Of a DNA stretch of 64,000 nt, positions 8,601 to 38,190 are shown in pieces (position 1 is the first letter of the stretch; each line of letters starts with the position of its first letter). The notes beneath the pieces are model-generated. The model was not told where the DNA came from. It saw only the letters and a program-made list of their open reading frames with translations, and made no database searches. The position numbers and the translations under genes were made by a program. Source of the DNA: Phoronis australis (taxonomy: Eukaryota > Animalia > Phoronida); NCBI GenBank assembly GCA_002633005.1, contig NMRA01000108.1:539006-603005 (forward strand), in the 5' to 3' direction.

Positions 8601-8741
8601 CGTTCAGTAGACGCTAGGACCTACGCTAGGACCTAGCTAAAACCTAGTCAAAGTCACGTGTTCTTATTCAAAATACACGGCGAAATCTCACGTATTCTCG
8701 CGAAGTCTTGCTTTTTAGCGAGGTCCTAGCGTTACTGAACG
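8601..8741. mobile_element. Short MITE, copy 2
   Basis: Same TIRs and interior as 7484-7636. More degenerate relatives lie near 13600-13690, 36890-36960 and 40060-40300. Confidence 0.8.
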
Positions 8742-11700: not shown

Positions 11701-12283
11701 CACCGTATAAGGCCTAACGAATATTTAATTCGACTGGTGATCTAACGTCGCAAACATTTGCGAAAATTCATTTGATTATTATGGCATACTTTTTATAATG
11801 ACCAGAGGTAAACGTTTTGCAAGATTGGACACATTTTCTGGCTTGACCGATTTCCACATATGTAGTCCGTCATGTCTGCATTGCTAAAAAACGTCGATCT
11901 ATTTATATCGTTCAACTATACAACATTGCTTAGGAACATCAATACGGTGACAAGGTTGCTTTTAATTCCTAATGAAACTAATTAACGATTCATCGTGTAG
12001 CGCAAAAAGAGCGCGCATTTTCTTCGCGATTTCATTTATGAGGATACAGCCAGAATATTGATCAGCTAACCATTCGCACATAGAAATATTTCGATACCCA
12101 CTCACAACGACCAAACTGTCGTTATCGCTAAATGTCACTGACAGCAATCGATATATAGCCAGCGCGAGATCTTTCGAGGGCATATAGCGCAGCAAACTAA
12201 AACGTAGGTCACGTGCTCAAAGCAATCCTCCGTCAATCAACCACTCTTGTTTGCAACGGTGAAACTTTCTGGAAAACGGGAAA

Positions 12284-12363
12284 ATGTCTGTTTTGTTGAC
12301 AGCTGCCAAGAATTCTGTACGACCCAAGAGCCGTGCCAAGAGCGCGAAGAAGACCAAAAAACG
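12284..12363 (+). CDS. Putative first coding exon of a small Lys/Arg-rich protein (paralog A)
   Basis: AAA-ATG, in-frame TGA upstream at 12260, MSVLLTAAKNSVRPKSRAKSAKKTKK(R), strong phase-2 donor GTAAGT at 12364; protein-level similarity to 19340-19434. Confidence 0.55.
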
Positions 12364-14670
12364 GTAAGTAGGGGCGAAATTTACACATGAGCTGTTTCTA
12401 AGTATCTGCGATCCATACGTTTGGTAAACATTGAGTGAGGAGACATATTGAATATTTTATATAGCACGTCATGGACAAGGCTACCACTGGCGGTATATTT
12501 GGTTAGTATCTTTGGTTCTATGTAAAACAAATGGACGAAAATTCTACTACTAAGTCTCGTAGCGGACGCCTGTTTCCACGGCAACTAAATCGTCGATCCA
12601 AGTATTAATCTAATAAATACCTTTGAGAATATATCTAGGCTTATACACTAAAATTCATTTACTAATTACTTAAAATTTAATGGAGTTTATGTCCGGATTG
12701 CGTGATGGCTGGGAGTTACAAAATACGGACGGGTCTCGTTAAAACTGGGAAATCTAAACAGATGCAATCGGTCACCTGAAGGAAACAGTCACTGACCCCC
12801 AGTTCACTCATAGTTTATGAATCATTTAAAGCCGCAATTCCTTTTCATTTACTATCAAATATGAAATCAAGATATATGTTAATACGTTTATCAAACTAGA
12901 TAAAACCTTTCTTAGTCACGATAGCATCGATCTCAACCTTCAGTTAGAAATAAGACGACGTCAAGCTGAGTTTGAACAGTCAACTTTTCGAAGGCCTGGC
13001 CGTATGACTTCCGAAGCCGTTCATAATTACTCTATAACGACCGTAATGAGTTTGTGGCCAATGAAATGAAGCCCCATCATGACATGAGGCTTTTTTCAAG
13101 TCTGCTTTTGTGGGAATGAGCTGTTTAGTTTTGATTTTGGTTCTCGGACAGTTTTTAACAGCCCTGGTGTATTTCTGTTTCCCTGTCCTTGCTTTCGATT
13201 GTCGCCCCGTGGTCGGTGCCGTTATGAGCTGCTAAATGGCAAGGGTTGGTGTCTGAACGATAGAAGTGGTGGGCGATTATTAGGCACAATATATTTCAGA
13301 CATTACATATCTACTGCTACCCCTGCCATTAGGAAGCAAATGTACCCACGGAATGTATATGTAACGGACTGTAGTCAATTGAACTGACAAGTCAGAATAA
13401 TGCCTACACACACACAGCTCGGGAAACTGGTGGCAGTGGCGGCACAAATGTGCTAAAAAGGTAAAATAATAAAATCAAGAGCACATAAATATTCTTGGGT
13501 TAGCCTAGAAAAACTAAACCACATACAAGCGCAATGTTCGTTTTGAAGTTTATGCCTCAACATATTTCTAAGCCATCGATTAAAAAATAAAATAAGGTCG
13601 TGTTCCGCAGTCCCAAGACGTTTGCGAGTAAAGCTAATGTGATGACGTTATTTGGTTGTAATGCATGGCGATATCTCGCGAAGACTTGTGTGATTGTGCT
13701 TTTTTGTTAGATTCTTGGGTCGGAGGAGACGACTGCAGGCCACCACACAAAGTATTCCTGTTAATTTTTTTTTGAGAACCACAGTTTTAGCAGGCGTTTG
13801 GGTGTGTTTTCTTCATGTCACAATGTGGGATTGTTTTCTGTTAGGTATTGCAACGGGTAGGTGTGAATTTGTGGTCAGCGAAGTTTCTTTTCCTTTTCTC
13901 TCTACTCCCGGTCACCTTCACTGTTTCACTCCTATGGTGGCCACGTCCTAGGTTATTGAATTTGTTCCAGCTGAAGCAGACTGAACAGTGACAAGGCGGA
14001 TCATTGAGCGCACCTCACTTCTGTGGGGGGGGGAGCTGCGTTTACACCCGTCACGTCCCCTTTACAGTTGGCTGCAGTAATGTTTATACGCTCTCAAAAT
14101 GTAATGCTTTTTCTTGGCTCCTTCGTTATCCCCTAAATAACAAACAGATTATATGTTTTAGTCACTTACCGAGTCTGTGACATCATTGGATAAACAGTTC
14201 AACCAGAAGGGACCCAAATACGGTTTATCTCCGCGTGTATGCATAAATGTATTTATTTATTTATTATTGTAATATTTACATTGAGGGTAGCCCCATCAGT
14301 TCTCACTGTTTTCCATTGGGGGCCCTCTGTAAAAATATACAAAGACCGTGTCGTTGCACGTAACAATGCCATAAATAAAATATAAACACTGACAACGAAG
14401 CAATGTTGTACTTCCTTTACGCTTTTGGGTCAAAAAACAAAACACATTTCCGTTGTTCGAAATAAAACACAACAATTTCGTTGTCTGCGTATGCCTGATG
14501 GTTTTAGTCGAAACTAAGATAACACAGCAATTTTGCGGTCTCTTTATGACCGAGACAAAACATCGTACTTCCGCTGTATTTGTATCACAATACCCAGTGC
14601 CTTTTCTTTCCTTGTGACATCACTCTCCGCCATATTTATAACGTAATGCACATTTAAGTGCAGTCTAAAA

Positions 14671-14826
14671 CAATGCTGTAGTGGTAAAATTAGAGGTAAG
14701 TAGGCACCAAAAGCCCACCGTATCCCCTTGAAGACTGAACGTAATTTATGATGCGTAGGCGCTACGTTCAAATGCCAAAAGATGGTTGGCTGCGCCTACG
14801 TGCGCCTACGCCCCACTACAGCACCG
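14671..14826. mobile_element. MITE
   Basis: TIRs CAATGCTGTAGTGG / CCACTACAGCACCG; subterminal GCGCCTAC / GTAGGC repeats. Confidence 0.65.
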
Positions 14827-15023
14827 TTAAAACACCTTTGTGTCCAAATCCCAGTGATACTAATTTGTGACAAAATACTCCAATAAAATTCAAATACAAA
14901 TAACCCAAGAATTTTTCAGGTAGCAACTTCCTTCAGGTGTCCGATACAAAGCCTAGATTGATCACTAGAAAACACAATTGTGGAACAATGATTTCATAAG
15001 TGCACTACTGTTACTTATCCGGA

Positions 15024-15200
15024 ATACCTCGGGTATTTTCGTAGTCTCGAATTTCCGCTCGGGTGTGAACGTTTTTTTTTGTCTGTGGGAACGTGGGTAA
15101 ACCCCGGGTATTCTGGGTGCACAAGCAAACAACGTTTATCTCAAAGGGTAAAGCTGACGCTACAAAAATTTCAGAGATTTTCTGAAAGCATTTTCCGAGA
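15024..15200. repeat. Dispersed repeat fragment shared with 27488-27645
   Basis: Shared blocks CCTCGGGTATTT..GTGAACGTT and TAAAG..GACGCTACAAAAA..TCTG.AAG. Confidence 0.55.
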
Positions 15201-18200
15201 CATCAACGGTGAAAACAGTCCAAGGACTCTGCTGAGGAGGAACGCTTTTGACATGTTTATCAGTTCTATTAAATTTTGGAAAACATGAAATCAATATCGT
15301 ACCGTTGTATTATTTTAAGTGTATTAAGCCCTAGTGTCAACTGTGCTACCGGATGTCGGAATTAAAAGTCAAATACACGGAGAATTAAGTGAAGACAAAA
15401 TCGCCAACTTCAAACTTAGGGATTTTAATCGAACCCTCAGAACGCTTATCACAGGAGTGGACACTTCACCACTGTCAACCAAACTCCAGCCACGCAAAAT
15501 TTTAGTGAAAAACTCTGTGATGCTTGGTCAGGGTTTTTGTTTTGCAAGTTCCGTCGCTGTAATAAGAGTTCCTCTCCTTGGTAATGGCTCGTAAGCCCTT
15601 GGCACGGTTTAAATTACAACCCTGAACTTTCAACGTTTGTGGTGGTGCATCTAGACACAGAATGTATTTTTGACGAGGTGAAAACTTTATCAGTGAGCGG
15701 ATTTCGCCTACCGCCCGTTTAAAATACACGGGACGAAATTAGTACAGAACGCGATAGAACGTATTGTAGTGCGAATCTGAAGTTCATTTGCCATAACAGC
15801 AATGCTTTTTGGGCATTTTTCGAACTAAACGGCTAAAAACTCGAAGACAATAACAGAATACACTCTGCTACCGTATTGGGCAAATGACCAAACGACAAGC
15901 TTTTGCCCCACTTCCCGTGACGTCACAGTTAAGTCTCATATAATCTCGCGTTATTGTTATAAACTCGCAAAAGGCCTATTAAGTCTGACCAGTGAATCCC
16001 ACTCAGTTCCTAGTAATCAAATATAAAACCAGGAGGCCCAACTCTCCGTATTTACAATCTAAAATGGTTCCCACTGAAGAGATTTTTAAAAATCGTGGAG
16101 AGATGAAATGTCTTCATGGTGGTGTACAGTTCCTATGTTGCTTTTCGTGTGATGTTTCATTTGTGTTTGCAGTAAAAACAATTGATTTTAAAGTGACGCA
16201 CACGTGGCACCATTATGCTTGCTCAACATACTTCTGAAAATCAAACGAAAACGTGAAATCTTTGCTTACTGGTATTACTCATACAACGATCGTGCATATA
16301 TTGCCATATTGATGAAAACAAAATGTCGGTACAAATGCGTTCAATTTGCGACGCTCACTGTCTATCATTCAATACTTCCAATTGTTTATAGGGAGACACT
16401 CATGCGTACAAACATATCAGAATATCAAAAATCGATTGCTACATAAATAGACAAAAGGTTCTTTCAAAAAATCAATTGTGGGGTAAGAAGGATAAATACT
16501 GTACATTAAAAATGCATGAAAATCAATGATATGCCAAAGCACATCAAATGTTTAGTTTTAATATTTTTCTATAAACATCGCCAACGAAGTTGAATTGTGG
16601 GTTTAATCAATGATGTAAACATCGGGAACACAAATGTCTCTCTAATGCAAGCCGCTCACTTTACTGGACAGTACGAACCTACCCAGAGTGCAACTTGTTG
16701 TAAATAAGAAAACAATTTCACGTTTGTTTTATTAGATTTTCGGAGTACTTTCTTGCATAATGGACGATGTTATTGATTTTTTAAGCGATTGTGTGAAGAA
16801 CACCGATAGATGTCACTGCGTTGTTTGGAGTCTCGTTACAAACAGAACTTTGCGTGATGTGAAGACATGCAAACTCCGGAAACGGACTCCTGAAGCCCAT
16901 GAGCGTTCACGTGGCACGTCTTGTTCCTTATTTTAGTAAGATTTAAAAATCTTTCGTTTCAAAGGCGTTTTCAATTTCCCCAGTAATCAGTAAACATACA
17001 GCACACAAAAGGCAAAGTTAAGCGCTGTATTTGGGAATAAAAATCTTAACAGTTAGCCTATTGCTTCATAAGACCTCAAGTAAGCTTCATTCGTGTACCT
17101 TGGTCACACATCGAGCAATGCTCTGCCTAATCGGGATTCAAAGCTTGATCGGGCGATTTTCATTCGACCTAATGACTTTTCCGTGCTAAAAATTGTCACA
17201 CCGAGATTCTTGGTAGCGTTGGCCTGGTAACGGCATCAAACACTTGAAGTAGGCAACGGTGCACTGGAGGATCCAGGAGGCGGTCACAACGCCCAGCGAA
17301 CCATTGTTCGCCATAACCGTAGAGATGGGTCGTCATTGACCAAGAATTCAGTTGGAGGGTCTAAGGCAACCCACAAATCCCTTCTGATGTTAGAACACGC
17401 ATGGCTAATTTTGTTGTTTCTACAATTAAAATCGCGTTGGATCTAATGTTGTTCAGATACAAATTCTGTTGAATTGTTAAAAGCAGAAATGCATCTTGAG
17501 TTCCTTTCTCCTGCTACGTAGCTGCACACCTGAAGAAAGGAGATTGTTTTGACACAACGAACGACTCTTTATCAAGCTTTCAAACAAAAGTTTAATCGTG
17601 TTTTCAACGAAGTTTGTGTCAACAAAGGGCTACTACCGAACTATACTGGCGTGAAGGAGAAAAGAAAGACCGGGTGGCATTTTTGTAAAATTCCACTCAA
17701 ATTACTTTATCGAAAATTGTGAATTTCCCACGGTGAACCGTATACCGCTTCTATTGATCATGATTTTTTAGAATTTAATTAAGACCTCGTGGTGGTAATC
17801 CAGTGATTTTTATATTAATTAAAAAGATGCATCCTCTGTCTGACATTATTGATTATGATTATATTTCAAATGTTCATTTCAAAATGTAATTCCAAACCTT
17901 GTAAATATTGAAGCATTTCCTGTTATCCAATACCACTTAAATGTCACACTTTCGCAACAGAAAATGTCATTTTTGGTAAATACTAAATGTAATACGATTT
18001 GCATTCAAAGCATTGCAATCTTTCACATTGCTACAGTGCACTATAGGTGGCGCTGTGTCAGTGGCTATTAAAGCATGGGAATCAATTTCCGCTTATTGTA
18101 TTCATTATTTTTAGGGTGTAAACTGGATTTAGCACAAAGAAGTCTATATGAAAGCATGCACGTGGACGATTTAGCTATTTTCGCATTCTTTTGGTCACAG

Positions 18201-18467
18201 TCAAAATATGAAATCGAAGTTACTATGCAACCGCCTTCGGCGATTTCGACGTTTTTGAAAACATTAAATTCCGTCTGTAAATTCGTCTACCGTGAAAAAT
18301 AATACGATTTTGACTACTTATCGTTAGGAAATCAATCTCAAATTGCTCCCTAATGAAAATTATTAGGATCTTTTCTGAGCTTGTGGGGAACTGACAGTTC
18401 GCCTTTGCTTGAGACAAAGTTGACTCGTCAAGGTGTGTCATGTTATTCGTCGAACATGGTCTTAAAC

Positions 18468-18705
18468 CATGCGCGCGCCTAGCCTACAATATAAGCGGGC
18501 TCGAATTTTTCGATATGCGAACCTTTTACTGAAAGAAACCAACGACTAAAAACACGGGACCACTAGGCTGAGGCCCACGAACCGTTGCTCCGCTCCTTCC
18601 CTTGGATTTTGTCGACTTTTCTCTCGTTTACTCGGACTTTTTGTTTCACTGAGGCGGACCTTTTTGCCCAATTCGCCAAATTGCCCTCCCCCGGGTGCGC
18701 CCATG
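18468..18705. mobile_element. MITE with 5-bp TSD
   Basis: Ends CATGCGCGCGCC / GGTGCGCCCATG; TAAAC immediately flanks both sides. Confidence 0.65.
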
Positions 18706-19339
18706 TAAACACTAGAGTATTCTAGGTTCTTTGCAAGACCAAAAACAGCTTCTCATCTGTGTAAGGAACAATTTGAGACCAATTTAATTACGGTAAGTTC
18801 TAAATCAAAGATCGCTTCATGGAGGGAACGCGGGTTTGTAGACGCTTTAAGATTTGAATTAGTCCAGTTATGGTCCAGAAAGTCTCTGTTTTACCGCATT
18901 CACAATGGAAGTGTTCCTCAACTGGGGAGGAACTGTGGCTACAGATTGAATATGATACATCTTGGAACTTATCATTTCATTATGCGCTTTCAATGAACTT
19001 TATAATGGATGGAAGAATTCGAATGAGACTGGCAGGTTCCCTTGAGAAGTGGGATTTTGGTACCCTCTAACAGTACATACGAACAAAAACTTAAATTTGC
19101 AGAGACCACACGATTTTGTGCAAATATTAACCCGGTTCGATAAACTTAATCGGTTATCTGTTTTCGAGTGCTTTCGCGAATTCCCTTTCGAGAGCCCCGT
19201 TCTACAAAGAATATTTTATTTATCAATCGATACATAGCGCTTGTGCATTCATTTAAAAGTTTGAGGACGAGACTGACAGGTCATTTATTAATTTTTGAGT
19301 TTGGTTTGTGCGGATTCAGTGTCCTGGCAATATTGAAGA

Positions 19340-20157
19340 ATGTCTGTGGTATTAACAGCGGCGAGGAAAAGCGTACAAAAGCCCAAAAGTCCAAAACCGA
19401 AGAAAAAGACTTCTGTATCGAGCACCGAGCGCAGGTATCGTGTTTCGTCTATTGATGTACTGTATCGGGTTTGTGTTTCTCCTGCCTGAGGGCCATATGG
19501 TCTGCCAAAGTAGGCAATGCTTTTCACGCGTAACAAATTAGTCAATTCTACAAGCAATCTCAACAACGAGGGCAATTATCAGGGCCTGGAAAAATTTGCT
19601 CTCGTAAAACAAGACGTCACAAAACTGTAGTTTTTCTACAATTTTGTGAACTAGCCACGCAGAAGTGCAGCGTGTGCCTTCTGGTTTTTAGCCCCGCGTG
19701 TCGGGTTCACAACTTCGTCAAAATTGAACCAAGTGAATTTTAACATATTTCTTCTTGATTTTAAGTTTCACTTTCGCCTGCGTCTAAGCCGTTCATTTCA
19801 GAGGTTAATTGCGCTAAAATAGAACCTAAGTTCAGTTTGTTTTTAACAACGCTTCCGGGTTCTTCCAATATCACAACTTTTACTAGTTTGCGCACTGTCC
19901 GTTGATCTGAGACAAATTAATTTGTCTCGTTGCTTGCAGTGGCGGAATTAGAGGGGGCCAAGGGGGCCACGCCCCCCCTAAAATTCTCCACGATTATATT
20001 TGACAGTTCGGGGGTGCGAATGTCTGACGGGCAAAATCCTGGCTAATACTCTGCCCGCCCCCCCAACTCAAAATCCTGGATCCGCCCCTGATTTGCTTCC
20101 AGATGTTTTCGGAAAGATCATGAAATCCAGAGACAAATGTATATTGCAAAATATTGA
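19340..20157 (+). CDS. Putative two-exon gene for a 49-aa basic microprotein (paralog B; exons 19340-19434 and 20103-20157)
   Basis: AGA-ATG with in-frame TGA at 19334; MSVVLTAARKSVQKPKSPKPKKKTSVSSTER; phase-2 donor at 19435; candidate acceptor ttccag ending 20102 gives RCFRKDHEIQRQMYIAKY*; AATAAA at 20339. Exon 2 is less certain than exon 1. Confidence 0.5.
19937..20090. mobile_element. G/C-run MITE
   Basis: TIRs CAGTGGCGGAATT / GGATCCGCCCCTG with internal G and C runs. Confidence 0.75.
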
Positions 20158-23100
20158 AAACGACCTTATGGATGTCGAACGTGGGAGAGCACTGTAACTG
20201 TTGAAGCTCAGATGATACTATTCACTATTTTTTTCAATGAAATTCTTGGAAGTTGTAGAGACGACTGTTGTTCACGCTATACAGCGAAAAAAGCCGGAGG
20301 CTTACATACGTATATACAAAAAATTATCATTAACAACAAATAAAAAGCACTATATACATGTATACAGATACCAAATCCATGTGTCATTGACATGAATCAA
20401 GATTTTCAATAATTATATTCTCGGTTGCACGCTTTCACTGGAGTATTTCGGTCGCAGCATTTGGTTAGACCTCCTTAATCCAAAATTGGAAGATAATGTT
20501 ACTTCCTATTCCAAACAAAGTGGCCCGCTGTCCTCTTAAGATGAGCTAGTAAAAATGAAATTTGTCACCTCTGAGAAAATTAGGGTGATCTGAAAAAATT
20601 GTGAATGCTCAAGAAAAAAAAAAACAAAAACACGCGGCTACCCGTCCTAGCATTACATTTTATACAAAACAATACATTTGTTAGGTAATTAAGAATTTAA
20701 AAATCATTTTGTGTTATTGGTTGACAATGCGACATGTGGTAAAATGTGGCCCAAATTATCAATTAATGTCGGACAGTTGTGATAACAATTTTCTCAATTC
20801 TGAATGTTATTTATACAGTTTGCTAAACCCGGTTTTTACGTGTGATCTGGTATGAACAACGGCGCTCCCATCATGCTCTTCAAAATGAGAATCTGTAACC
20901 CTTGCCAACCATAAAGGAGAAGGTCCGAAAACTCGTAACAACGTCGGCAAAACTTACAAGCGTGACTAACAATCTTGGCGAGTTACTGTGGAGAACGGCC
21001 AGCCACCAAGTACGTGAGAGTCCACTTTAAAACGCAATGGACAAGTGTTTTAGTTGACAGTTTTATTTGTCACTAAGGTGTGATACAAATGGTGCGTTAG
21101 CCGGTGACGGAACTATGCTTGACGGAAACCTTGGTCTGAAGTCACCAAAAGAGAGCTTTCTTTTATAGAAGTGGTAACACTTTTTCTTCAATAAAAAAGA
21201 TGTACACATTTGGGATGACTTAGTCTTTGAAACAGCTAAGATAATCCTGCGGAATTTTCAATGAAGGAATTGCCCAGTCACATGCCAACTCTGAGGAAGT
21301 TCGTGATCGTTTGAGAAGAAAAGCGGTACGAGAACAATTCTCAGTTTAATTATGTGTTGCAATCAGTTTTGTTGTCAATTGATACAATGCGTACGGCGAT
21401 CGAAAACCATTTCTGACTTTCTATTCATTTTTATATTTACAGATAACAGTAATCAATGTGTCTCGCGATCGTATTGACTGTGACATAGTTTGTAGTCAAG
21501 TGTGTACACGTGACATTTATTTCCCGTACCATTATTTACGAGTCTGCTGGTCGCTTCTCATTTATACTTGTTCGGATCCGGTCATAATTAGCCTACACTC
21601 TTTCCCAATGCTATGAAAAGGTGAAGACTCGGACTCCGGAATGGTTAAATGGGGGCGCGTTCCGTTAACGCAAGACACAATCGAGGCAGCTGCGGCGAGA
21701 GATTTTCGCTTATAATTGTACGGAAATGGTGAATTCTATCCCACAATTCAACATTCCAGCGTCACCGAACTTTCACTTCTTTGCTAGTGTATGCGGGTAA
21801 GATTCAGAATGACCATAGCGGCGTGAAACATTCGCACTTCACTCGTGATTTTACGTGGTCGCGCGTAACGTAGCGAGAAACTTGGCCTTATGGAACATAG
21901 TCTTGCCATCATAGTCTAATGAACATTTCGAAAACTTGGCCATTTAGTCAGATTTCGACTATAGTAATCTACAGTCTGATTTCATGAATGCATACGTATG
22001 TCGACAATTCAAATTCCTTATAGTTTCTATCATTGTCGATATTTTTTATTCAGTTGCTCGATGGTTTTACTGTGCGCGGCAACTATTTGGATAACCTTTG
22101 ATGGAGATACACATAGACGCACCTTTGTACTGCAAACCAAAACAAAGTGTCATGCTCGAGTGACACCGTGAACAGTGGGCATGGTGATCACAACCCGAGT
22201 TATCTTCTGTATTGACTTAGTTACGCCAATTAAGGCTGTAAAAGCATATTTTTACGTTCAGCTGGTTTCAATAGACCGGTTGACCTAGGTCCTCCTTCAT
22301 TGACCAAGATGCCGGAAAACCAGACGTCAGTAGGTACATTCAGTGTTCACCAAACTCTAAATGCTAAGACAGGCTGGATGGAAACTAACCATGAGAACCC
22401 CGAGTCTACGACACAACACTCTGACATTCCGAATGGTCGGAAGGTAATGTTTGGACGTTCAGTGGTAAGAAGTTGCTGAAACCGTCAGACTAAATCGTCG
22501 AGGGATGCAGTGTCCATCTTCGAATTATGTGACTCCGACTCAAGATTAGAAGGCGTCTAGTAAAACTACAAAATGACGTTTCAAGTACTTTTCGGCTCAT
22601 TCCCGGACCATTTGTTTATGACCAACGTCCAAGTCAGGAGCGGAATTCTGTGTGTTTTGAATCATCCTCGTACGGTGCTACTCTTGTCGGACAGCGCCAC
22701 CGTGTATGTCGTAGTACTCTAAAACTTAGTCTATATTCAACGTAGGCTTGCTGTGACTACTGTACGAATCATAAAAGAAGGTGAATGTCGAAAACTGACC
22801 AACAGTTCGACAGCTTCCCGTTCAAAAGGCGTATTTCTGACTTTTCTTTTAGCGTAATGGCAATAAATAGGGCCCGGCTGGTAAGTGCAAACAGACGCTA
22901 TTCACCGTGAAACTGCACTTGCTCCTTGTGAAACACTCGCGTGACCACGCCAAATTCAGTCAACGAAAGATACAATCCCTCGGAAACACCTTTGGATAGA
23001 TTTCTTCGCTTGCGTGATGCCCTTGTCGTAGTTGATAAATTAACAATATGCTATCTCTCCAACGAGAATACGACGCATACCAACGCCTGTTGTGATGCAA

Positions 23101-24091
23101 ACGTCCTAACACCAGAGTAGACAGATTAAATTAAATTTTAATGATGTTATTAATGGAGACTTATGTCATTATTCCGCAGTAATGCGCGTTTTGTATGCTA
23201 TTAATATTCACGACGGTCCTTCTGTCAATGAACTTTTGTAATAACGACTCAAAACAATCTTCCGACAGCCAAAACAGCAAAGTACCACAACGGTCATTAA
23301 AATCTTAATTTCGTGCAATTTTGAAAAAAGGCACTAACCACTTTTTTCTCTTGTATTATTAAGAAAAGATTAGCACCGTACGCAGCAATAAATTCTTTTT
23401 ATACAAACCACTTCGTCTATTCATTTTCAAAGATATATATTACAGCAAACTATCATTCTGAAAATAAAGTTTATCTTGTTGAAACAACCTTTATAAACTA
23501 TAACGTCGATTTTGGCAAAGACCTCGTTGTCCGAGCAAAGACGCATCTAAAACGCACTCCGTTGGGAATTTATCGAAGTTATAAAGCAGATATGTGCGAT
23601 GACGTAAAAACAGGAGCTATACCCGTGAACGACTTTGTCGTTGCCTTGTACTGGTTTAGTTGACCGTTTTCAAAACTTGTACGCACTCCGTTTCGACCGC
23701 CGCTTTTACATTGAGGAAATTATAATGGACTGTGAAATTATCGGAACTAACGTTTGTGAGTTGACAAATGTCACAGACCATTTCCAGTCAAAGGTGCCTA
23801 ATTTCCTCCAAATACAAACTTCGAATTTTCAATCACCAACGCACCTAGGAGCGGCGCGACCTTGGGCAAGAATTTAGCGAAAAGCCAAGACCACGCGAAC
23901 TGGGGCGAGTGAAAAGCGAGTGTTTTGCGGGTATGCTCCTAGAAAAATGGCGGCCACTAAAGTGCTTGGTCGTGAGGCTGGGATGTCAAATTATGGATAA
24001 AATGGCTGTTTCCGTTCCTGTGCAAGTGTCTTGGAGAGGAAACGAAATCGATGGGCCAGGGGCGCTCTGTTACCTTTCTCTCCGAGTCTTT

Positions 24092-24235
24092 TTAAATACC
24101 TTAAATCATCACCAGGTATGAGTCTTGCTCAACATCATTTCACGATAACAATCAACTTTACACCAAAGTGCATAATACATGTAGAGCATGACTCATACCT
24201 GATGATGATTTAAGCTATTAAGTCGAAACGTTGAC
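24092..24235 (+). mobile_element. Penelope-like terminal remnant: inverted repeat carrying a minimal hammerhead ribozyme motif
   Basis: CTGATGA-T-GATTTAA-GCTA-TTAAGTC-GAAA-CGTT at 24199-24232; 24092-24135 is an inverted copy of 24178-24221. Confidence 0.6.
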
Positions 24236-26747
24236 GTCCTTAGCTTCTTATTATACATCTGGCCAAAAACTAAATGTCGTCACAAGATATTACCAAATAA
24301 TAAGTGCTCCATTCTCTATTCTGAAATTGGTGAGAACAAATAAAACATTTTTTCACCAGAACACACAATGCCCTACAAACTGTTTGTGGTGAAAATAATT
24401 ATTGTTAATTTAGGCCGTGAAATAAATATCCACCCATGCAGATACAAATTAACAGGTTGGTGCGAGTAGAAAGTGGCTTGTGCGAAAATCTATCACAGAC
24501 TGAATTTCGTACTCTGTGAAACAAGAGCCACGGAAGCAAATTTTTTACTCTTAACGATATCTCAAACCTTATTCACTGGATTGGCCGTTTTTACAATATT
24601 TCAAACATGTCTAGCAAAATACCTTATCTTCTTGGTCATAGAATGTTTCAAGATCAATAAAACAAGTGGGAAGCATCCTGACACAGAGTCTTGTGTAAAA
24701 TCGAGGCATTGACGTGGAACATATTCCATTTACCCTATTTATACCCTGATCATTGCTGGAATGTCCAAAGCAAAATTAAAGTCGATCAATGATCATGAAT
24801 GAGGTGCAATTTCGTGATTTCCTTAATTAGTATACACGGCAAAGCGATGTTGTGCTTTCACCATAGATACGAGAATAGTGAACTAGTGGTAGTGGGAAAA
24901 CGGTTACACGGCCAGAAGTTTTGATCAAAGAGTTACACATTTGCAAATATGGACCACGAGTACTTTTAAAGTTGGTTGTCGGTAGTAGAAAATACAAATA
25001 AGTGCGAATTTTACAGAGGAGTTAAGTCTAAGTTGTCTTGTGAAAAGTATTTATGTGAGGAGATGACGCAGCAATAGATATTTTACATAGCGAACATTAG
25101 ATGTTCAACTCACACATTAGAAACTGAAAACGGCTGAAGAAATGGTATTTCCCGCTGTGAAAGAAAATTTGAAATGCAGGAGAAATTGAGAGAGAAGAAC
25201 ATTTCATGTTGCGTTGCCCAGTATTGGTAGATTTAAGAAACAGGTTCTTACCACGCTGCCACTTTAGAAACAATGATATCAGGTCTCTTTTTAACTCGAA
25301 AACAGCCAACACTTTCGAGAACACCTCAATGTATAAACAAAGGGCAATGATGAGCAGAAACGAAGTATTAAATCTTTAATGGCTGTGTACGCATGCATAA
25401 AGTTTGTATAATTACTATTGTGAACTGTGGGCCGGTGGCCTCTTGTTCAAATAAATATGAGTTTACGTAAGTTAGTACGTTCACGGCACAAGAAAACTCA
25501 CATGTATCACAAAAAGAGCATTTGTTGTTATTTCTGATGAAAGCTCGTGCTTAAAACGACTAAAAATCCGCGTTCTGTAGAAAAAAAAGACCTTTCTTTT
25601 GATTTAGACCATTTGCCGCCATAAAAGTGGTCCCGCTTGTTCCATTAATAACTAACATGAAAACTGATTTTAGGTCTTGCAAAGAACAAACAGCTCGTTA
25701 TCGCTCGACACTATGCCGGGCGTCTAAAGTAACAAACCATTTTGTAGAGACTGAGCTCAATCAATAACGAACTGTCAGTTCGCAAGCATAGCTATTTTGG
25801 CTTGGTGACAATATGAGACCAATTTCGTCATGTTAAGGGATCGACATCATAATCGGTTTTGCGACGAACCCGCTTTAAAGCAGAACTCGCAGGCTAATTC
25901 ATTATCTCTGATTGCTTGACCAAATTAGTTAGAAGCACAACATATAGCGACGATGCGAATATAAAGTATGTTGAAAATTTCCAAATGTGAGAACGTGTTT
26001 TGTGGCGCAAATGATCCGCTGCAAATCACTGAACCCTGCCCAGTAAGTATCGTGACGTTGTGCTGGGGAAAAACACAGCATGATGCGGGATATGTGAGCC
26101 CGCGAGGTACGTCATTAGTAGTGCAAAGGTCGCCTATTTGCAGATTTTTTTGTTTTCACATTTACAAATGGTCAGTGAATGCAACTGCACTTTGTTTAGC
26201 GTAAATTGTGTTAGAACAGCATTGTCGTTTAGTTCCTGCTATAAATTAACATAGTTAGGAGCATGCAAATACATCTTTAAATGAAATTCACACTCGATTT
26301 GTTCAGTCTCAATACTGTGTTCAGGTTACCTATAGATACTAATGAAAAGCAAGTACAACTGTCACCGGATGAAGGGGATGGTGCATACATGTACTTGTCG
26401 AAGATCTTTAGCTTTACCTCAGTTTCGGAGAATTTTATAAACTACCTTTGTTCGTACTCTGTGCGTATTCCATAAAGGTAGACACTCGCAAGGCACTTTT
26501 GACGAGAAGTCTTGACTTCAGGAACGGAAGGAGATTTTTAACTTAGATTACAGTTTTCTCCCGTAATTCAATATTCCAGCCTCCCATACCGATAACTTCA
26601 GTGGCGGATATGATTACTTACCCTCGCGGCAAGCCAACACATTTTACTCGTGTGGATCACTACCACCTAAACCTCAGTTTGGTCACTAGAGCGCGTTGTC
26701 GTGGTTTCTAATCCGGGGAAAGAGAGAGCACGTACGCATATATGAGA

Positions 26748-26769
26748 ACACACACACACACACACACAC
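26748..26769. repeat. (CA)n microsatellite
   Basis: Direct reading. Confidence 0.95.
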
Positions 26770-28182
26770 TTAGAGATAACATTTATTGAGACATTTCTAA
26801 CATATCAGATGACGTGTTGGGTAATGAAGGCCTTGGAAAATAGAGCAATAGAGCATTTAGGCGCAGTAGGCGTCCGTTAAAAGATTGCATTTTCAAACGC
26901 ACATTGAGAAAAAGCTACTACACCTTGGGTTTGCGGCCAGCAAGAAGCGTTCAAATGTATCTTCTCTTTTTCGAGTTGTTCTTATTTGAAATGTGTCCAG
27001 TAATTTTGAGATGCTCTGAGTAAAATCTCAACAATTTCTGTGACTTAGCAAGCCACGCACACATGGCTTCGGTTGTCTAATTAGCCACACATCCTACGGA
27101 ATATTATGTGTGACACTACCAAGTCAACCTGCATATTCAATAGCCTTTACGTGACCAAGAGTGTGAGGTACATGGCATTTGGGTCCGCAGCCGCACGTCT
27201 CCTTGTTGTCTAATGATAAATATCTCGATTCACTTGTGGGGTGCATCGTCGCTGACCGTTTGTTCAATTTCGTGTTGAAGTCGACCTTTTGGGGTTCAGA
27301 AGTTTCAATGCAGGACAAGCGCAAATACCAGTGAAGTCTATGGGGTGAAAAGGGAATTGTTTTTCGTATAATCTGTGTGCACGCGCAATTTTTGGCTGCG
27401 CAGTTCTGACATGTTTTGTCGTCTAAGGACGTAAATGGATGCCTGGAGCACAGGTGGTGTGGCTTAGTTGTATATATTCAGCATTGGAACACCTCGGGTA
27501 TTTCGCCTCGGAGGTGAACGTTATCTGCACATTAAGGGCTTATCATTCTCCAGTTTGAAAATCTACACATATGCAGATGCTGTTTTCCTCCCGGGAGGAT
27601 AAAGTCGACGCTACAAAAACATCCGACATTCTCTGGAAGGCGTACTCATGTGTCAGTGTTTCCTGCTACATCCCTCGTCCTTCACAACTTCACTGTGGCA
27701 ATCACGGCTCAACATGTCTATAGCTAACAAGACAAATAGTACGTGTGAATGCAACATATTCCGACGCTTGTTCTATTCAATTAGACAAGTGAACCAATAT
27801 TTTTCTAAGAATGGAAGTCAATTAGTAAATGCATTATCGAAACCTTGATATTTGATAATGGAATCAGTATTCTGGGAATAAGCGGCCCTCGGCACAGCTT
27901 AAAGGACGTTCTCGGCAGAGAACGTAATTTTACAGCAACTCCGCAGTAGCAACCGAATGCTTTGCCGAAGTGTCAGATCCACTAGATAAATATGCATTGT
28001 TTTAAACGCATTTATATGGTAAAGATACTGGACGCGATTTTAACGAATGTCCGGCAGGAAACGTCAAGAATTGGCGATTTGAAATAAAATCAAAGCTGAA
28101 AACGTCAAGACGTCTATTCTAATTAATAATAATCCTAAAAATAATGCGTTTTCCGCTGTTCAACTGTGTTGTGATGATCTCA

Positions 28183-28470
28183 ACCAATCCTCGTTCTGTA
28201 ACCTGCTAATGCATCATTGGCGTCTATCTTGAAAGATAAAATCAGGAATCAATTAAAAATCCATACCCCTATTTAAAAATTGGGTATTATGGTCCTTGGT
28301 CTTTTCCCACCATTGCCGTGTAATTCACGCTTTTCAGTTTAGCAGACTTCAAAAGAGTTGTAATATTTTGCTCCTAACTTTTCAGGGTTGTTGAGGATTA
28401 TAGAGTATTATCTCGTTGCAAAGAACTGGTATCTGTTAATAAGCCCAAACTGGGTTTGATATCCTTTTTT
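28183..28470. repeat. Old dispersed duplicate, homologous to 44561-44915
   Basis: Collinear blocks ACCAATC..TTCTGT..CTAATGCATCATTGGCGTC..CTTGAAAGA.AAAA..AGGAATCA, TTCCCAC..TTGCCGTGT, TTTAGCAGACTT and ATCTGT..AAAC.GG.TT.G.TATCCTT. Confidence 0.7.
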
Positions 28471-29499
28471 AAGTGGTAAGCTTTCAGGTACGCATTTAAT
28501 ATCACCCCAGTTACTGACAATTGACGCGTAACGTAATCACGCGCCTTTGGTAAGAGATTTGTGGGATGTCTGCAATAAATTGTGGGTTTCCAAGCAAAAG
28601 TAAAGCTACTGGAGAACGTGTAGCTACTGTGCATTTGAAGTCAGTAAACGGCAATAAACGTGTATATCCCACATTTTTCTATCCGTACAAATGTTCACTA
28701 ATGGCATCGCTGACGGAGCGTCTTGTCAATCAAAGACTGCGGCGCCACTTAAGTGTTTCAATCGCTTATAGGAGGGCAGAAAATAGTCGTGTAATCTGTT
28801 TACAATGGTCCTTTACGGACCCAGTTTGATTAATTATTCATATCATAATTGAAATATTCTACCGGAGTAGATTTGTTCGCGTGACAGTTAGGGCGCTTAT
28901 GTGCCAATCAGGAAGAGAATTCTCCGGTGACGAGGAAATTGCTCGACCTCAGTTAACATCAAAGATATGATGATCACCGGCTTTGGTCGTGTCAATTGAA
29001 CAAAAAGGCATATTAATGAGATTATAACGCTCTAGAATATTTTATTGAAGTCACCACCAACTCTAAAAAGTGCGACTGTTGTTTAATTTTCAAGCAACAT
29101 TATGTAACTGTATTGACATAGAATGACCCGGCGTAAACAAATGTCATAATATATATTTCATTGAGATTTGAAAAAAATGACGTATCTCGCCGAACCAAAA
29201 TAAAGTAACAACACGTAATCTGATAGTAGTCAGAAGTGCACGTAGCCACTGGTCAGTGTCGTCACGATGTAGTGTCCATCTTCTTCTCCGTGGCTTAAGT
29301 GAACACAGCATTTTGTCACTGCAAAACAAGGAAGAACAATTGCAATAAATTAAAAATTACTTTAGTGGAAGTCACTTCTAATGTCAATTAGTATAGCCTG
29401 GTCGTGAAGGAATGGGGCAGAAAATCAAGGCGTGTCCCGTGCCCCAAGAAGGGAAAACGCCTTATGTTTCACAGGGACGTCGAGAGACGGGGTTGAAGT

Positions 29500-30030
29500 T
29501 ATGAAGCCCAGCAAGCTTTTCGAATATGCAACAGGCCTTGCCGGGGAAAAACGTCATTTTCATCTGATTCTGTAATCTGTCTATAGGGTATATCATAAAA
29601 CGGTGATCTTCTGGTAACCATTCCAGAGTTGAAGACCACTGAACTTTTTCGTATTTGTGAAACATTTTCAGTCTAAAACTTTACGTCTTTGGCTGAGTTG
29701 ACGCCCTTGTAGGGTGTGAAGTCGATTGACCATACCGTTGATGTGCGTCAGAACCTCCTGAGTAGTCCAATGAGCAACTCTCCTCTGTACTGTCTTTGTG
29801 ATAGCTGCGTTATAACATAGAGTAGATGCACATTCCAAGATGGGTCGAACCATAATTTTTTAAGCAAACTCCTGAAACTTGTGGGTCCCTACACGTAAGT
29901 TTCGTCCCGTAGGAAACCCAGAGTTTTATTTCAGTGGTTTCTTTTGGACGGTATTTATCTTATTGTGAGGTCCATCTGAGGTTACGCGAATAGGTAACGC
30001 CCAAGTATTTGACTTCCTTGGCAGACTTCA
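29500..30030 (-). mobile_element. Decayed non-LTR retrotransposon (LINE) reverse-transcriptase C-terminal region
   Basis: Minus-strand fragments with stops and frameshifts: VKYLGVTYSRNLRWTSQ*, NKTLGFLR, MVRPILECAS, VQRRVAHW, RLKMFHK, FFP. These are typical of the CR1/L2-group ORF2 C-terminus. Confidence 0.8.
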
Positions 30031-31798
30031 AAGTGTAGTTCAGTACAAACTCTATACATGTACATGTTGCAATTCAACTGGTATTTGTGTAGCATGCAAT
30101 GTGAGTTTTTTGATACTTGGGACTGTGCATACCTGAAATTTCTAGGGTTACGGCTCGCTGACGCAATAATCGCACCCGCAAGATCATGCGGCAAGATCAC
30201 GCAAAAGCACTACACAACGCACTCCAATTTCTTTGGAACTGTCTTGTCTTCTCATCTTTCTTTCTGTGAATGACATTGTTTTAATCTGATGCATATTACG
30301 CCCGACTTAAGTGGGTCATTTTCATTATGTATAGACTTAGAGTAGGGGCGTATTGGCACGAAAATGACTTCCGGTTGATCCCGAACTCAGATTTGGTGGA
30401 CAGAAAGTTAAGTATTACTCAATGGTCCATTTATTTAAAAACAGGAATAAATTCAACATGACGTGGCTATTTCAAAAGTCGGCCATTGGTTTTCCTAAGT
30501 CACAATCCTCGGTCACTACTCTCTAATAAACAAATAAATGCGGTAGATCAAGGCAGCTGCAGCCCATACAGGTGACCAGTGAGACGTCTGGTGGCGATCA
30601 ACAAGTGTACTTTGGCTAGACCATCTTGTAGACAAATGGACATTCAGTTAGATTCTCCAGGCGGTGCCGGTTAGGCTGTTTCTGCATGACCTTCTACTTT
30701 TGCCCTATATATGATTTATACGTCAACTGTATGTGACTGAATTCTCATGCAGTAAGACACGTCAGATTTTTCCTGTCGGTCCTCGCGTACTTCGTCGAAT
30801 AGCGCACCCTTTCTGAGGGGAGTGTAACACAATAATTGTAACAACTGAAGTGCTTTATCCATTTTTAATGGTTCACCGTGAATTTGAATACCTTTCCAGA
30901 TTGATCAGTATTGTTGTGTTGATGTTTTAACAGAAACATAACACGCCAGTGAATGTCAAAGTCAATATTGTACCACCAGGCGTAATTTGACCCAGGATTG
31001 TCTGCATATATATTGATTAACGTGCTATTACGTATCAATAAGTTATGGCTATGCTTCTGTAGAACGTACTGGTTCCAATAAGAAAAAAAAGAACAACGGT
31101 CATCGAATAAGTCATAAATGTAGATTTTAGTTCTTAATCGAATTATTTAGTTTAGATTTTAGTTCTTAAACGTACGTCGGTCGAAACTACCTAGCAGGAA
31201 CCAAATTTACTTAAAAATGAGAAAAGCCACGACCCAGCTAGATTAGTTCATAATAGGGACCTGGGAATTCCAATCTCCTTTTGACACGTGATTCGTCGTA
31301 CAAACTAGAAAGGCTGGTCCTGGCTTCCGACAAAGATCCATAGAGATTCACTTAAACAAAATCAGCTTTAAATAGCGTATTTACGGTGCTTCGTGAGTGC
31401 TTTTATCAATACGGAAGTAAACATTGAACAACAAGAGCGAGCGAGACTACGGCTCAGCTAATCAGCTTGGTGAACCAACATTTAGTATTTTCTTACGTAG
31501 CCGGCCATATTATCCTCCGCGTAGTATTTTAGACGAAAAAAGCATAACGCATTATCTTTCAGTTGCAATCAGGGCATCAAAGGCAATGCAAAACCATCTT
31601 TTCTGCTTTTGACAATTGGTCTTCTGTTCTCTGCTCCAAATTCCCAATCTCCTAAATCGGAACTAATTTTGAACGTACACACGAAGTGTCTTCGATTACC
31701 ACACGTTGTGAGCAGGTGAGCTGACCTTTGGACGAGACGGTCCCGCCACCTGGTGACTGCAGCCAACCATGTGGCCAGAAATAACTGCACCATGTTCT

Positions 31799-32757
31799 CA
31801 TAGGCGGATTTAGGGGGGGGGGCCCAGGGGGCCCGGCCCCCCCCCTTGGCTGCCGCAAAAAAATAAAACAGCAAGAGCGTAGGGAAATGTTGAGTTTATT
31901 AATTTGCCCCGGTAATTAAAATTATACGGATGAAAAAAGATTTAAATGTGTGCAGTTTTAGCGNNNNNNNNNNNNNNNNNNNNNNNNNNNNNNNNNNNNN
32001 NNNNNNNNNNNNNNNNNNNNNNNNNNNNNNNNNNNNNNNNNNNNNNNNNNNNNNNNNNNNNNNNNNNNNNNNNNNNNNNNNNNNNNNNNNNNNNNNNNNN
32101 NNNNNNNNNNNNNNNNNNNNNNNNNNNNNNNNNNNNNNNNNNNNNNNNNNNNNNNNNNNNNNNNNNNNNNNNNNNNNNNNNNNNNNNNNNNNNNNNNNNN
32201 NNNNNNNNNNNNNNNNNNNNNNNNNNNNNNNNNNNNNNNNNNNNNNNNNNNNNNNNNNNNNNNNNNNNNNNNNNNNNNNNNNNNNNNNNNNNNNNNNNNN
32301 NNNNNNNNNNNNNNNNNNNNNNNNNNNNNNNNNNNNNNNNNNNNNNNNNNNNNNNNNNNNNNNNNNNNNNNNNNNNNNNNNNNNNNNNNNNNNNNNNNNN
32401 NNNNNNNNNNNNNNNNNNNNNNNNNNNNNNNNNNNNNNNNNNNNNNNNNNNNNNNNNNNNNNNNNNNNNNNNNNNNNNNNNNNNNNNNNNNNNNNNNNNN
32501 NNNNNNNNNNNNNNNNNNNNNNNNNNNNNNNNNNNNNNNNNNNNNNNNNNNNNNNNNNNNNNNNNNNNNTTTTTTTTTCCTTTTTTTCTTGGATAATACA
32601 TCAGAAATCAAGGAAAATGCTTGATTTTTAGAGGAAAAAACAGAAAAATTTCCTCCCCCCATTCGGTGCTGTGCGCATCTGCAATCGTGGTTTGCGCAAA
32701 TGCTTACAGCCGGAAAAAATGTTGGGCCCCCCTTGTGATATCCTAGATCCGCCACTG
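31799..32757. mobile_element. G/C-run MITE ends spanning the assembly gap
   Basis: CATAGGCGGATTTAG / CTAGATCCGCCACTG; GTTCT flanks both ends; interior mostly N. Confidence 0.55.
31964..32569. other. Assembly gap
   Basis: Run of N. Confidence 1.
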
Positions 32758-35700: not shown

Positions 35701-38190
35701 TTGCGTTTGTCGAAAGTTATGCCAGTTTGGTTCCCAAGAAGGCACTGTAAGCTTACATTTTTTGCTGGGTTTTGCCTGACAGTGCACACGTCACTGGTCT
35801 TGCTGCCCTTTTTACACTCTGTAGCAAACTGTGAGTCGTGTCACATGAAAGCCGCCATTCCTAACCACAGAAACTATATTCTATCCCATATTTTTACCCT
35901 TTAACTTTCACCGAAAAAAAGGTGTCAAAAACGCAAAATTGACAGTTTTCAGCCCAAAAACCACCATTTCCCTGCCAATGCTCGACACCGTGAGCCAACA
36001 TTAGAATCTTAAAGCAAATTTCCCAGGGATTCCACAAATCAGGATGGTCCGGTAAAAGTGCTGTCATTCAATTAGATTTTTGCAATTCTGTGATATTTGA
36101 TGGCTATCTCAGTGAAATCGCAGCAGATACACAACCCATGTATGCTGCAATTCAGCATTGTTATAGGGCCAGGGGCCGCCATTTTGAAGAAAATTGTATC
36201 TGCAGCCGAACTCGTGGTCTGCTTGTACAGTGCATCCGAAATGAGCATCGCCTTATGATATTGAAACCTGCGCCTCGCTGTGCTTAAAAATGTGCTCACC
36301 CGCCCAGTAAGCTCTCAAAAGAAAAAAAAACAATGCCGTCGAAAATAAACACCCTGGTATTATAATTAAAGTAATTCCATCTATTGCTTACAGGAAAAGA
36401 CACAGGACAAATCTGGATTAACGGCAAGGAAGTGCCTTCGGATGACATTTTGGTTAGTTGCACATGATTTTTGGATGTTTGGGAAATGAATTCTAGATAT
36501 ACATGTATTTCCCATCCTACTTTGTTTTGTGACCATTCCTAAAAATGATCTCCATGTTTTGAAGGCTAGCACGTTTCACATATTTTAAAGTTTACAATTG
36601 ATCTGAACATTGCAAAAAATTTGCATAGGTGGCAATTGACGCGAATGCAACAAAGAGAATCCCATCGTTGAGTATAATGCCGATTTATACAAATTTAAAT
36701 TCTAAAAGTACTCATAATCATAAGTGCCATCAATTCTCTTATTAGGTTTAACAGTTTCTTGAACGCTTAGAAGATGAACTGGTTGTCACTGATAATAACT
36801 TAAATCACTAAAGCGGTTGCAGTGCTAGACCCTCGTTCCGTCAAGGAAATCAATTTTCAGTTTTAGAGCATTGATCGTAAGGTAATTGGAGAGCGTTCCA
36901 TAGACTAAGTTTCTCGCGACAAAGCAAGATCTCGCAAGACCTCGCAAAGGCGAGTGCTTCGAGAGTAACCTATTCTAACAAGCAAAGCGGCTGCCATTCA
37001 AGTGACTGATCGGTGTGGCTGAAGTGTTGAATTGTGGCTTTCGATTACTAGTTTTCATTTTATCAGTGAAGATTTTTCGTCTCATGAAGCTGACGTCTTG
37101 CGGTCTACAGAATGCAGCCCCATTCTCGCTTTCATTTTTCCTTATAACTTAGATAAGAAGTCATTGCTGTACTTGGAAAAAGTGACAGTTCATTCTGCTT
37201 GAGAACACGCTCGGCGCATAAAATCACTCGCCGTGACGAGCCAACTTGGCGAGCCTGGTCTAGAAGTAACAACAAACTAGTATCAGTTCTTTCTGAGCCC
37301 AACATAAGTCCGCTTTCATAACGGCAAATGCTCTAAATCAAAAGTTAGTTTTTGGCAGAAAGCGTGTTTATAGCCGCTTCAATAAAGATTTTTGATGTTT
37401 GACGAAAGTTGACATACATTACATTTCAGTGCGACTTCGACAGCAATGGCGAAGGAACTGTGATAAATTTCACAGTAGGAAGTGACAAAGCGAGGATTAT
37501 GGGTAAACGAGGCGGAAAAGGAATAGACCACCAACTCACAGTCAACGGATACCTCATACCAGAGTAGCCCATGTTATCGTTTGCAACACATATAGACTAT
37601 ACAGAGGACACGTTTGGTTGTACATGTTGGTCTAGATCACTGATTTTCCCGAAGAAACCGAAACGGTAAAAACCAACCAGGCTATATCGAAGAATGCGAC
37701 CCCTTTGTCGTCTTCAACCCACCATTCCAGTTTCACATATACTCGTTTTCTTTTCAGTCACAAAACAGGATTTACGTATTTAAGTGAAAAATTAGGTACT
37801 AGACCATATAGAAAAAGGAATTTTAGTTCCTGTAACCTAAATACCTTTGTTGTAATATAATTGTTTTAAAAAGTACACAAAAACGTACGCTCTGAGAACT
37901 TTTTATTGTTACAGAGAGTTGTCAACGTAGTTGGGTGACAACAATAAAATTGTTTTTTCGTTAATTCGTGACAGTTTTACGGCTGCAGAATTGACCGAAG
38001 GGATAATCAATTAATTTACTACTTACAGTCATTGTAACGTGTCAGTTATTTTTCTAGTTGAAGAAGTTGTTTATATTTTATCTCACATATACTCTAACTG
38101 TAAGTTGTTCTTAGCACCGTATGCTGTTATCGTTTAACGGGCAAAGATGAATTGTCCGCACGAGCTAAATTTGTTAGCCAAAGCGACATT

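Follow-up and report, generated by a model that had tools for sequence, protein, structure and literature searches.

The window (the whole 64-kb stretch of DNA that was analysed) likely contains an overlooked FAIM-like gene, which would encode only FAIM's C-terminal domain and has two duplicated, likely alternative first exons, A and B, that encode basic tails. Four short exons, with 59–138 coding nt each, are spread across 25 kb, which makes this an example for annotation of a gene missed by an open-reading-frame track. An NT5DC-like gene and a CYP19-like gene neighbour the locus. Its features are as follows.

12145..12159, + strand: upstream motif of the putative promoter A, 139 nt before the ATG; contains ATCGATA
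12220..12363, + strand: first exon A, 5' leader and coding part (coding 12284–12363); leader start approximate
12364..34456, + strand: first intron of isoform A, 22,093 nt long, GT..AG; read consensus equals 34457–34486
19224..19238, + strand: upstream motif of the putative promoter B, which precedes the ATG by 116 nt
19340..19434, + strand: first exon B, coding part; homologous to exon A and likely used by this gene as an alternative first exon
34457..34551, + strand: exon 2, 95 nt, entered in phase 2 and left in phase 1; 5' end from reads, 3' join predicted
36394..36452, + strand: predicted exon 3, 59 nt, entered in phase 1 and left in phase 0; W-x-N-G motif
37430..37567, + strand: exon 4, coding part, 45 codons plus the stop; five beta strands predicted, corresponding to the final part of the FAIM C-terminal domain
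37943..37948, + strand: candidate poly(A) signal AATAAA, the nearest after the stop codon

Exon A is transcribed from the + strand. In the RNA run X3, where read placement covered 19% of the run, 23 reads fall on exon A, all oriented as + strand RNA, and depth around the exon is restricted to bins 12185–12412. The reads begin near 12220, with none upstream, and a sequence scan of the leader found no upstream ATG. Fifteen of the 23 reads extend beyond 12363 with a consensus agreement of 1.0. This consensus is identical to 34457–34486, a single-copy sequence in the window that is preceded by a canonical acceptor and continues in a phase that keeps the frame open. Exon A is therefore spliced over 22,093 nt, beyond exon B and beyond the acceptor at 13710, which is located where a repeat copy ends and had been proposed for exon A from a reading of the sequence alone. 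The same run-on reads rule out a join of exon A to 13711, and likewise a transcript in which B follows A as a cassette exon. Exon A was found in one of the three raw-read RNA runs, and the junction comes from that one run, X3. Exon 2 lies 14 kb beyond the end of the region first noted. Within the intron lie exon B and several repeats, together with an N gap, nominally 31964–32569, which might conceal further exons.

The joins of exons 2, 3 and 4 are predicted from splice sites and reading frame. Exon 2 likely encodes a Ser/Pro linker and the first strands of the FAIM-type domain, and its donor GTGAGT is the sole strong donor ahead of the stop in this frame. Of the four candidates for exon 3 that lie between exons 2 and 4 and keep the frame, the one chosen has the best acceptor tract, and its omission breaks the frame; exons 2 and 3 contribute ~40 residues ahead of exon 4. 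The predicted products are 123 residues long when starting from exon A and 128 when starting from exon B, and would be alike except for their positively charged tails; in each model the only stop is the one that closes exon 4. In the exon A model 96 residues follow the basic tail, the domain, 86 residues in all, has a pI of 5.6, and Lys and Arg make up 17% of the whole product.

The FAIM identity was proposed ahead of the profile and structure tests. Exon 4 alone matches positions 131–171 of the 172-position Pfam FAIM1 profile (PF06905) with 17.3 bits, the cut-off being 22, and with E=0.0041, a value close to the best chance matches among 250 intronic frames (E=0.0076 and 0.0086); exons 2 and 3, each alone, gave no match to this profile. 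The predicted structure covers the 45-residue piece only and has a pLDDT of 77, and Foldseek places the FAIM structures 2kw1 and 2kd2 at ranks 1 and 3 (TM by query 0.75 and 0.80), with E-values of 0.12–0.15 and a phage baseplate chain tied at rank 2. The model superposes on FAIM residues 129–176 at 1.5–2.1 Å with 29–33% identity. VIA Z scores against the FAIM structures are 6.4 and 4.9, with 45/45 residues aligned and 2kd2 residues 129–176 covered, and the score of 6.4 is within the range that VIA calls common. With scores that are modest, the modelled last 45 residues are likely of the FAIM C-terminal type.

A phmmer search of exon 4 against the PDB gave 0 matches; against longer proteins there were six candidates, none at E≤1; and against 1.84 billion representatives there were two matches, both rejected as long repeat proteins scoring 5–7 bits per repeat. 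The unspliced B frame has no relatives in protein collections at 26–86 aa, and an atlas search for exon 4 and exon B yielded no usable lead. Since a control search with an exon of the neighbouring CYP19-like gene was equally blank (108 candidates, none of which reached E≤1e-15), these empty searches are uninformative on novelty.

Exon A joins exon 2 directly, no FAIM N-terminal exons were found in the intron, and a scan of all 250 intronic + strand frames with at least 28 aa gave no FAIM1 profile match, so the N-terminal beta-sandwich domain of FAIM appears to be absent from this gene. A second copy of the FAIM-type domain was not found in the sequenced part of the window. The gene is classed here as a homologue of the FAIM C-terminal domain rather than as a canonical FAIM. 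The Asn of the W-x-N-G motif in exon 3 presumably corresponds to FAIM Asn123, and Arg110 would be replaced.

Judged from their sequence, exons A and B are homologous 5' coding exons, arranged in tandem and equal in phase. The ATGs at 12284 and 19340, both on the + strand, have A at –3 and an in-frame TGA upstream (24 nt in exon A, 6 nt in exon B). Both exons end in phase-2 donors, GTAAGT after 12363 and the weaker GTATCG after 19434. These features, as well as the synonymous codon pairs earlier listed for the two exons, were all confirmed. The coding part of exon A consists of 26 codons and 2 nt, is Lys/Arg-rich and has a pI of 12, and that of exon B consists of 31 codons and 2 nt, is Lys/Ser/Pro-rich and has a pI of 11.8. 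Eight of the 11 residues after Met are identical, and the similarity is concentrated in the first 12 codons. A pair of ATG heads at 8/11 identity was the best pair in 3 of 200 Markov-simulated windows, and a BLOSUM score of at least 36 was reached in 31 of 200; taken alone, the likeness of the peptide heads is only moderately above chance. An excess of synonymous change, which the sequence-only reading had taken as a pattern of purifying selection, is seen in codons 2–12 (pS 6/9, or 0.67, versus pN 5/24, or 0.21; Fisher p=0.02), in a comparison biased by the choice of the pair for its peptide likeness. No third copy of the segment was found in the 64-kb window.

The flanks, described earlier as showing no similarity, share a 15-nt motif with 14 identical positions. 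Its 9-nt core occurs in the window only at these two upstream sites, both strands having been searched, and an identity of 14/15 was matched by 3/3000 and 4/3000 random stretches. The ATCGATA of the promoter A copy is DRE-like. When aligned with gaps, the 160-nt upstream regions were no more alike than expected by chance (761 and 1215 of 3000). The shared motif is a putative promoter element of both first exons.

The locus probably represents a single gene, in which exon A starts a FAIM-like transcript spliced over 22 kb to 34457, exon B likely serves as an alternative first exon that arose by duplication, and the shared exons encode a predicted beta-sandwich of the FAIM C-terminal type. Promoter and first exon would have been duplicated as one unit, and while the remainder drifted, codons 1–12 were presumably retained along with one upstream motif.

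The tail is likely a targeting signal, and its use as an address for the acidic FAIM-type domain may be put forward tentatively. The basic, probably disordered tail would stand in place of the FAIM N-terminal domain and could direct the acidic domain to the nucleus or to an acidic polymer, e.g. chromatin or microtubules, with the Ser-Pro sites next to the basic cluster as likely phospho-switches. At its destination the domain might act as a protein-binding, anti-aggregation module, as FAIM does, and two promoters would let different cells pick a tail. With the same gene structure, the tail could also be a presequence of mitochondrial type, or else an amphipathic helix that binds membranes. The conserved part is indeed the head, uncharged and then basic, the tail of exon A is free of acidic residues, and the hydrophobic moments over 11 residues (0.55 and 0.54 for the two tails) resemble the 0.49 of the first exon of the NT5DC-like gene. 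This is nevertheless unlikely, as Lys outnumbers Arg in the first 30 residues (7 to 3 and 7 to 1) and the Lys clusters are dense, a feature more typical of nuclear signals. Extending the address reading, the product could be a natural half-FAIM with an autonomous C-terminal domain, in which a histone-like tail from either of two promoter-exon cassettes targets it to chromatin or cytoskeleton in one tissue, e.g. the gonad; this is a rather long shot. If true, it would mean a lineage-specific nuclear or germ-cell chaperone, and the FAIM C-terminal domain would be shown as an autonomous functional unit.

Exon B is probably transcribed at a lower level. Its bin, 19222–19572, has a depth of 1.64 in X3 and 0.31 in X1, with only + strand RNA orientation and zero depth in the bins on either side. 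This amounts to ~575 letters in X3 and 110 in X1 over 351 nt, in X3 about one third of the read letters of exon A. The join of exon B to 34457 is predicted, as it fits in frame, and no read across it was found in the RNA runs; of the two junctions suggested for inspection, that from 12363 was recovered (in X3), and none from 19434 was found among the 15 joints listed of 16.

It is very unlikely that exon B is instead a separate small gene within the intron of A, encoding a basic microprotein of 49 aa, whether spliced to 20103 or unspliced. The acceptor at 20102, the open frame, the 49-aa model and the AATAAA at 20339, all noted from the sequence, do exist; the splice join was not confirmed. 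The joint 19434–20103 is absent among the 15 joints listed of 16, which is weak evidence given the few B reads, and 20103–20274 falls in one bin together with a repeat. Against such a gene, depth is zero at 19573–19923 and 20275–21678 in four of four runs, no B-specific exon was seen in the RNA runs up to 22000, the acceptor at 20102 adjoins a repeat end, and exon A, to which B is homologous, is joined to 34457 with equal phase. A stand-alone Lys-rich microprotein, as the sequence-only reading had it, is excluded for exon A by the reads continuing to 34457 and is unlikely for exon B. The same holds for its protamine-like, antimicrobial or ciliary peptides, refuted for A and unlikely for B, whereas its bracketed option of alternative first exons fits, A by its reads and B as the likely case. 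A link of FAIM to cilia was looked for and rejected; text matches to the name referred to FAIMS, a mass-spectrometry device.

That exon B is a decaying duplicate, weakly transcribed and no longer giving a useful protein, would agree with its lower read content, its weaker donor and a likeness confined mainly to the first 12 codons, but it is highly improbable, as the frame is open, the phase intact, the synonymous excess evident and the upstream motif retained. Equally remote is a second, paralogous FAIM-like gene opened by exon B and nested in the first intron of A, with its other exons inside the N gap: the gap does exist and genes are commonly duplicated whole in tandem, but the sequenced part bears no trace of a second set of exons 2–4, and the A transcript would have to bypass a near-copy of its own exons.

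A false lead is also removed, there being no evidence here that basic microproteins form a new family. According to 10.1101/569988, FAIM is an old, conserved protein whose molecular function long remained unclear. A natural FAIM form reduced to the C-terminal domain, its N-terminal domain replaced by one or the other basic tail, would make it possible to ask in which half the activity resides and how location is determined by 5' exons.

In comparison with FAIM (PF06905; 2kd2, 2kw1), exon 4 matches the last 41 positions of the FAIM1 profile; the N-terminal beta-sandwich is missing, and a basic exon of ~27 codons joins the exon that opens the C-terminal domain. The predicted size is ~123–128 aa versus 179 in FAIM, and two homologous first exons lie 7 kb apart. 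PMC6628066 describes the two FAIM domains as folding independently, the C-terminal one as a monomer, with Glu38, Arg110 and Asn123 as inter-domain residues and a contact that matters for anti-apoptotic activity; a one-domain form may therefore act differently. Glu38 belongs to the domain missing here. By the same account the N-terminus of vertebrate FAIM varies via alternative 5' exons, and some isoforms are nuclear. Rodents have a duplicated, testis-restricted FAIM gene, as PMC7056718 states, and FAIM is described in 10.1101/569988, PMC7056718 and PMC10358651 as blocking protein aggregation or cell death. No one-domain or invertebrate FAIM paralogues were found in the literature searched, which does not prove their absence from print.

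Protamine-like sperm nuclear basic proteins likewise have a basic Lys/Ser/Ala/Pro-rich stretch with Ser-Pro motifs, whereas here the basic part is a tail of 27–32 residues on an acidic folded domain. The literature searched yielded no paper about such proteins in lancelets. The product of exon A is not a stand-alone protein that is basic throughout, because it continues into a 96-residue part with a domain pI of 5.6. The duplicated-first-exon architecture itself is already well known: duplicated 5' coding exons with alternative promoters form a class with 39 human cases, the tandem exon duplication-derived N-terminal substitutions outlined in PMC8373072, which have homologous N-termini, as here, together with their own promoters and shared downstream exons, as proposed here. 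Compared with that class as outlined there, the present case concerns an invertebrate-type genome and a FAIM-like gene, with the second exon presumably in use.

The two basic coding segments of this window, exons A and B, are assigned to an overlooked FAIM-like gene (FAIM, Fas apoptotic inhibitory molecule), which encodes one domain and has a duplicated pair of basic first exons, likely used as alternatives. The window is animal DNA; its exons are short and small repeats are numerous. The following features were located:

1661–6181, + strand: multi-exon, CYP19-like cytochrome P450 (tested exon closest in the PDB to CYP19A1, aromatase, E 3e-16)
12284–12363, + strand: exon A
19340–19434, + strand: exon B, candidate alternative first exon
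34457–34551, + strand: exon 2
36394–36452, + strand: exon 3, predicted
37430–37567, + strand: exon 4, predicted, terminating in a stop
from 45204, + strand: gene for an NT5DC-like 5'-nucleotidase, first exon of its own at 45204–45372 (Pfam 5_nucleotid, E 2e-14, exon at 46055)

Elsewhere, repeat copies at 7478–7640 and 8595–8745 (82% identical) lie on either side of a 153-codon frame (7766–8227) that has no credible Pfam match, and a short tandem repeat at 53477–53648 has copies 66 nt apart with about 92% identity. A direct duplication of 575 nt at 54240–55390 (98.8% identity, a single N at 54815 between the copies) probably arose where two haplotypes were joined in the assembly.

Inspection of the window confirmed both segments where the sequence-only reading had placed them. 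Each opens with ATG, with A at –3 and an in-frame TGA 24 nt (A) or 6 nt (B) upstream; their GT donors, which follow 12363 and 19434, interrupt a codon after its second base. After the Met, 8 of 11 residues are identical; the codons agree at 9/11 first, 9/11 second and 4/11 third positions, giving pS 6/9 and pN 5/24 (Fisher p=0.02, a value biased by the picking of the pair). By tblastn the two match with E about 1e-6, and no third copy is found within the window. The best pair of ATG heads reached 8/11 in 3 of 200 simulated windows, and a BLOSUM score of at least 36 in 31 of 200, so the likeness of the heads on its own is suggestive, not decisive. Among the 110 candidate stretches between 6.2 and 45 kb that run from an ATG to a phase-2 donor, A and B rank second and third in Lys+Arg content.

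RNA was available as four runs bearing one common species label. Almost all depth in 11500–22000 comes from repeats, the reads of which continue into other loci. In each of the four runs, hundreds of reads on short repeats (14674–14824, 18520–18790, 19940–20090 and others) stem from transcripts of other loci and can pass falsely for local expression. The bin of exon A (12202–12552) has a depth of 5.33, in run X3 only, and that of exon B (19222–19572) 1.64 in X3 and 0.31 in X1, the sole orientation in both being that of + strand RNA. Within 11900–13580, X3 yielded 23 reads of 11.0 million records, 16 at ≥99%, all within 12185–12412; X1 gave two intronic reads of opposite orientation and X2 none. 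Fifteen X3 reads continue past 12363 with an agreement of 1.0, and their consensus equals 34457–34486, which occurs once in the window, is preceded by a canonical acceptor and opens an exon marked as a candidate ahead of the read test. One of the three raw-read runs thus shows exon A as part of a + strand transcript spliced to exon 2, and intron 1 therefore spans 22,093 nt, with copy B inside it. X3 differs from the assembly on exon A only at 12226, 12241 and 12246, by two substitutions and one 1-nt deletion, all in the 5' leader and none in the coding part. Intron 1 also holds 606 N (31964–32569), where the actual gap size may differ.

The sequence-only reading had taken A and B for separate microprotein genes (or alternative first exons), with A possibly spliced to an acceptor at 13710 and B to 20103. 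Neither 12363–13711 nor 19434–20103 is among the 15 joints listed of 16 in 11500–22000, and depth is zero over 20275–21678 in all four runs. The microprotein interpretation fails for A, the reads of which join exon 2, and is unlikely for B; most of the observations behind it stand.

Copy B has the phase of A, fits exon 2 in frame and carries same-strand reads, mostly from X3; it quite probably splices to 34457 as well. The flanks, described earlier as dissimilar, have in common a 15-nt motif (14 identical) at 139 nt (A) and 116 nt (B) before the ATG, which resembles the DRE element. Its 9-nt core has no other occurrence in the window, and its likeness was equalled by 3/3000 and 4/3000 random stretches; a gapped alignment of the entire upstream regions was not above chance. 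The common motif points to a joint duplication of promoter and exon.

Downstream, exon 2 has a single strong donor ahead of its frame end, and exon 3 has the best acceptor tract among four frame-compatible middle exons, its omission breaking the frame; joins 2–3 and 3–4 are predicted from frame and splice sites. The predicted products have 123 (A) and 128 (B) residues with one, terminal, stop each, the Lys-rich N-terminal tails having a pI of about 12 and the 86-residue domain 5.6. A stretch at about 33630–33693 (+), 760 nt upstream of exon 2, is closed by a strong GTGAGT donor and has no Pfam match; the short frame there does not continue in phase into exon 2, so that the stretch could serve as a third first exon without coding sequence, with translation starting at a Met within exon 2 to yield a tail-less form.

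Exon 4 matches positions 131–171 of the 172 of Pfam FAIM1 (E=0.0041; 17.3 bits, under the cut-off of 22), a match weak by itself because chance matches among 250 intronic frames went down to E=0.0076. Its single-sequence model has five strands (pLDDT 77). Among 350,542 PDB chains, Foldseek placed 2kw1 (“Solution structure of CTD”), which we take to be human FAIM, first and 2kd2 (FAIM-CTD) third, with rmsd 1.8 Å over 46 columns, 30–33% identity and E 0.12–0.15; a phage baseplate chain (17% identity) came second and FAIM-NTD 39th. VIA also put 2kw1 and 2kd2 on top (Z 6.4 and 4.9; 45/45 residues, FAIM residues 129–176), the next row having Z 4.9 as well. Profile, fold, identity and C-terminal position, each modestly, concur on a FAIM C-terminal domain for the modelled exon. 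FAIM has 179 residues and two independently folding domains (PMC6628066), whereas the N-terminal domain is missing from the transcript read from exon A into exon 2, and none of the 250 intronic frames, covering the sequenced intron outside the N gap, gave a FAIM1 match. The product is therefore called a FAIM C-terminal-domain homologue rather than canonical FAIM. Protein collections gave no relatives of exon 4 or exon B; they probably lack this animal's proteins, since the CYP19-like control exon was equally blank. A limited literature search found no paper on a one-domain FAIM.

The protein would be a small β-sandwich with a basic tail. Given the Lys clusters and Ser-Pro sites of the tail, its likeliest role would be targeting to the nucleus or to an acidic polymer, in a way that phosphorylation could tune; the domain would then bind proteins or counter aggregation, a tentative proposal by analogy with activities reported for FAIM (10.1101/569988, PMC7056718, PMC10358651). 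The main rival, a mitochondrial or membrane signal, draws on the hydrophobic moment of the tail (0.55). Contact between its two domains is reportedly important for the anti-apoptotic effect of FAIM (PMC6628066), which counts against simple transfer of function to a one-domain form.

Rodents have a FAIM copy restricted to the testis (PMC7056718). Reads of exon A in a single sample, whose tissue label is coded, would suit a tissue-limited paralogue of this kind, though X2 may be no valid negative. The A/B pair itself is like the known class of duplicated 5' coding exons, for which PMC8373072 gives 39 human cases.
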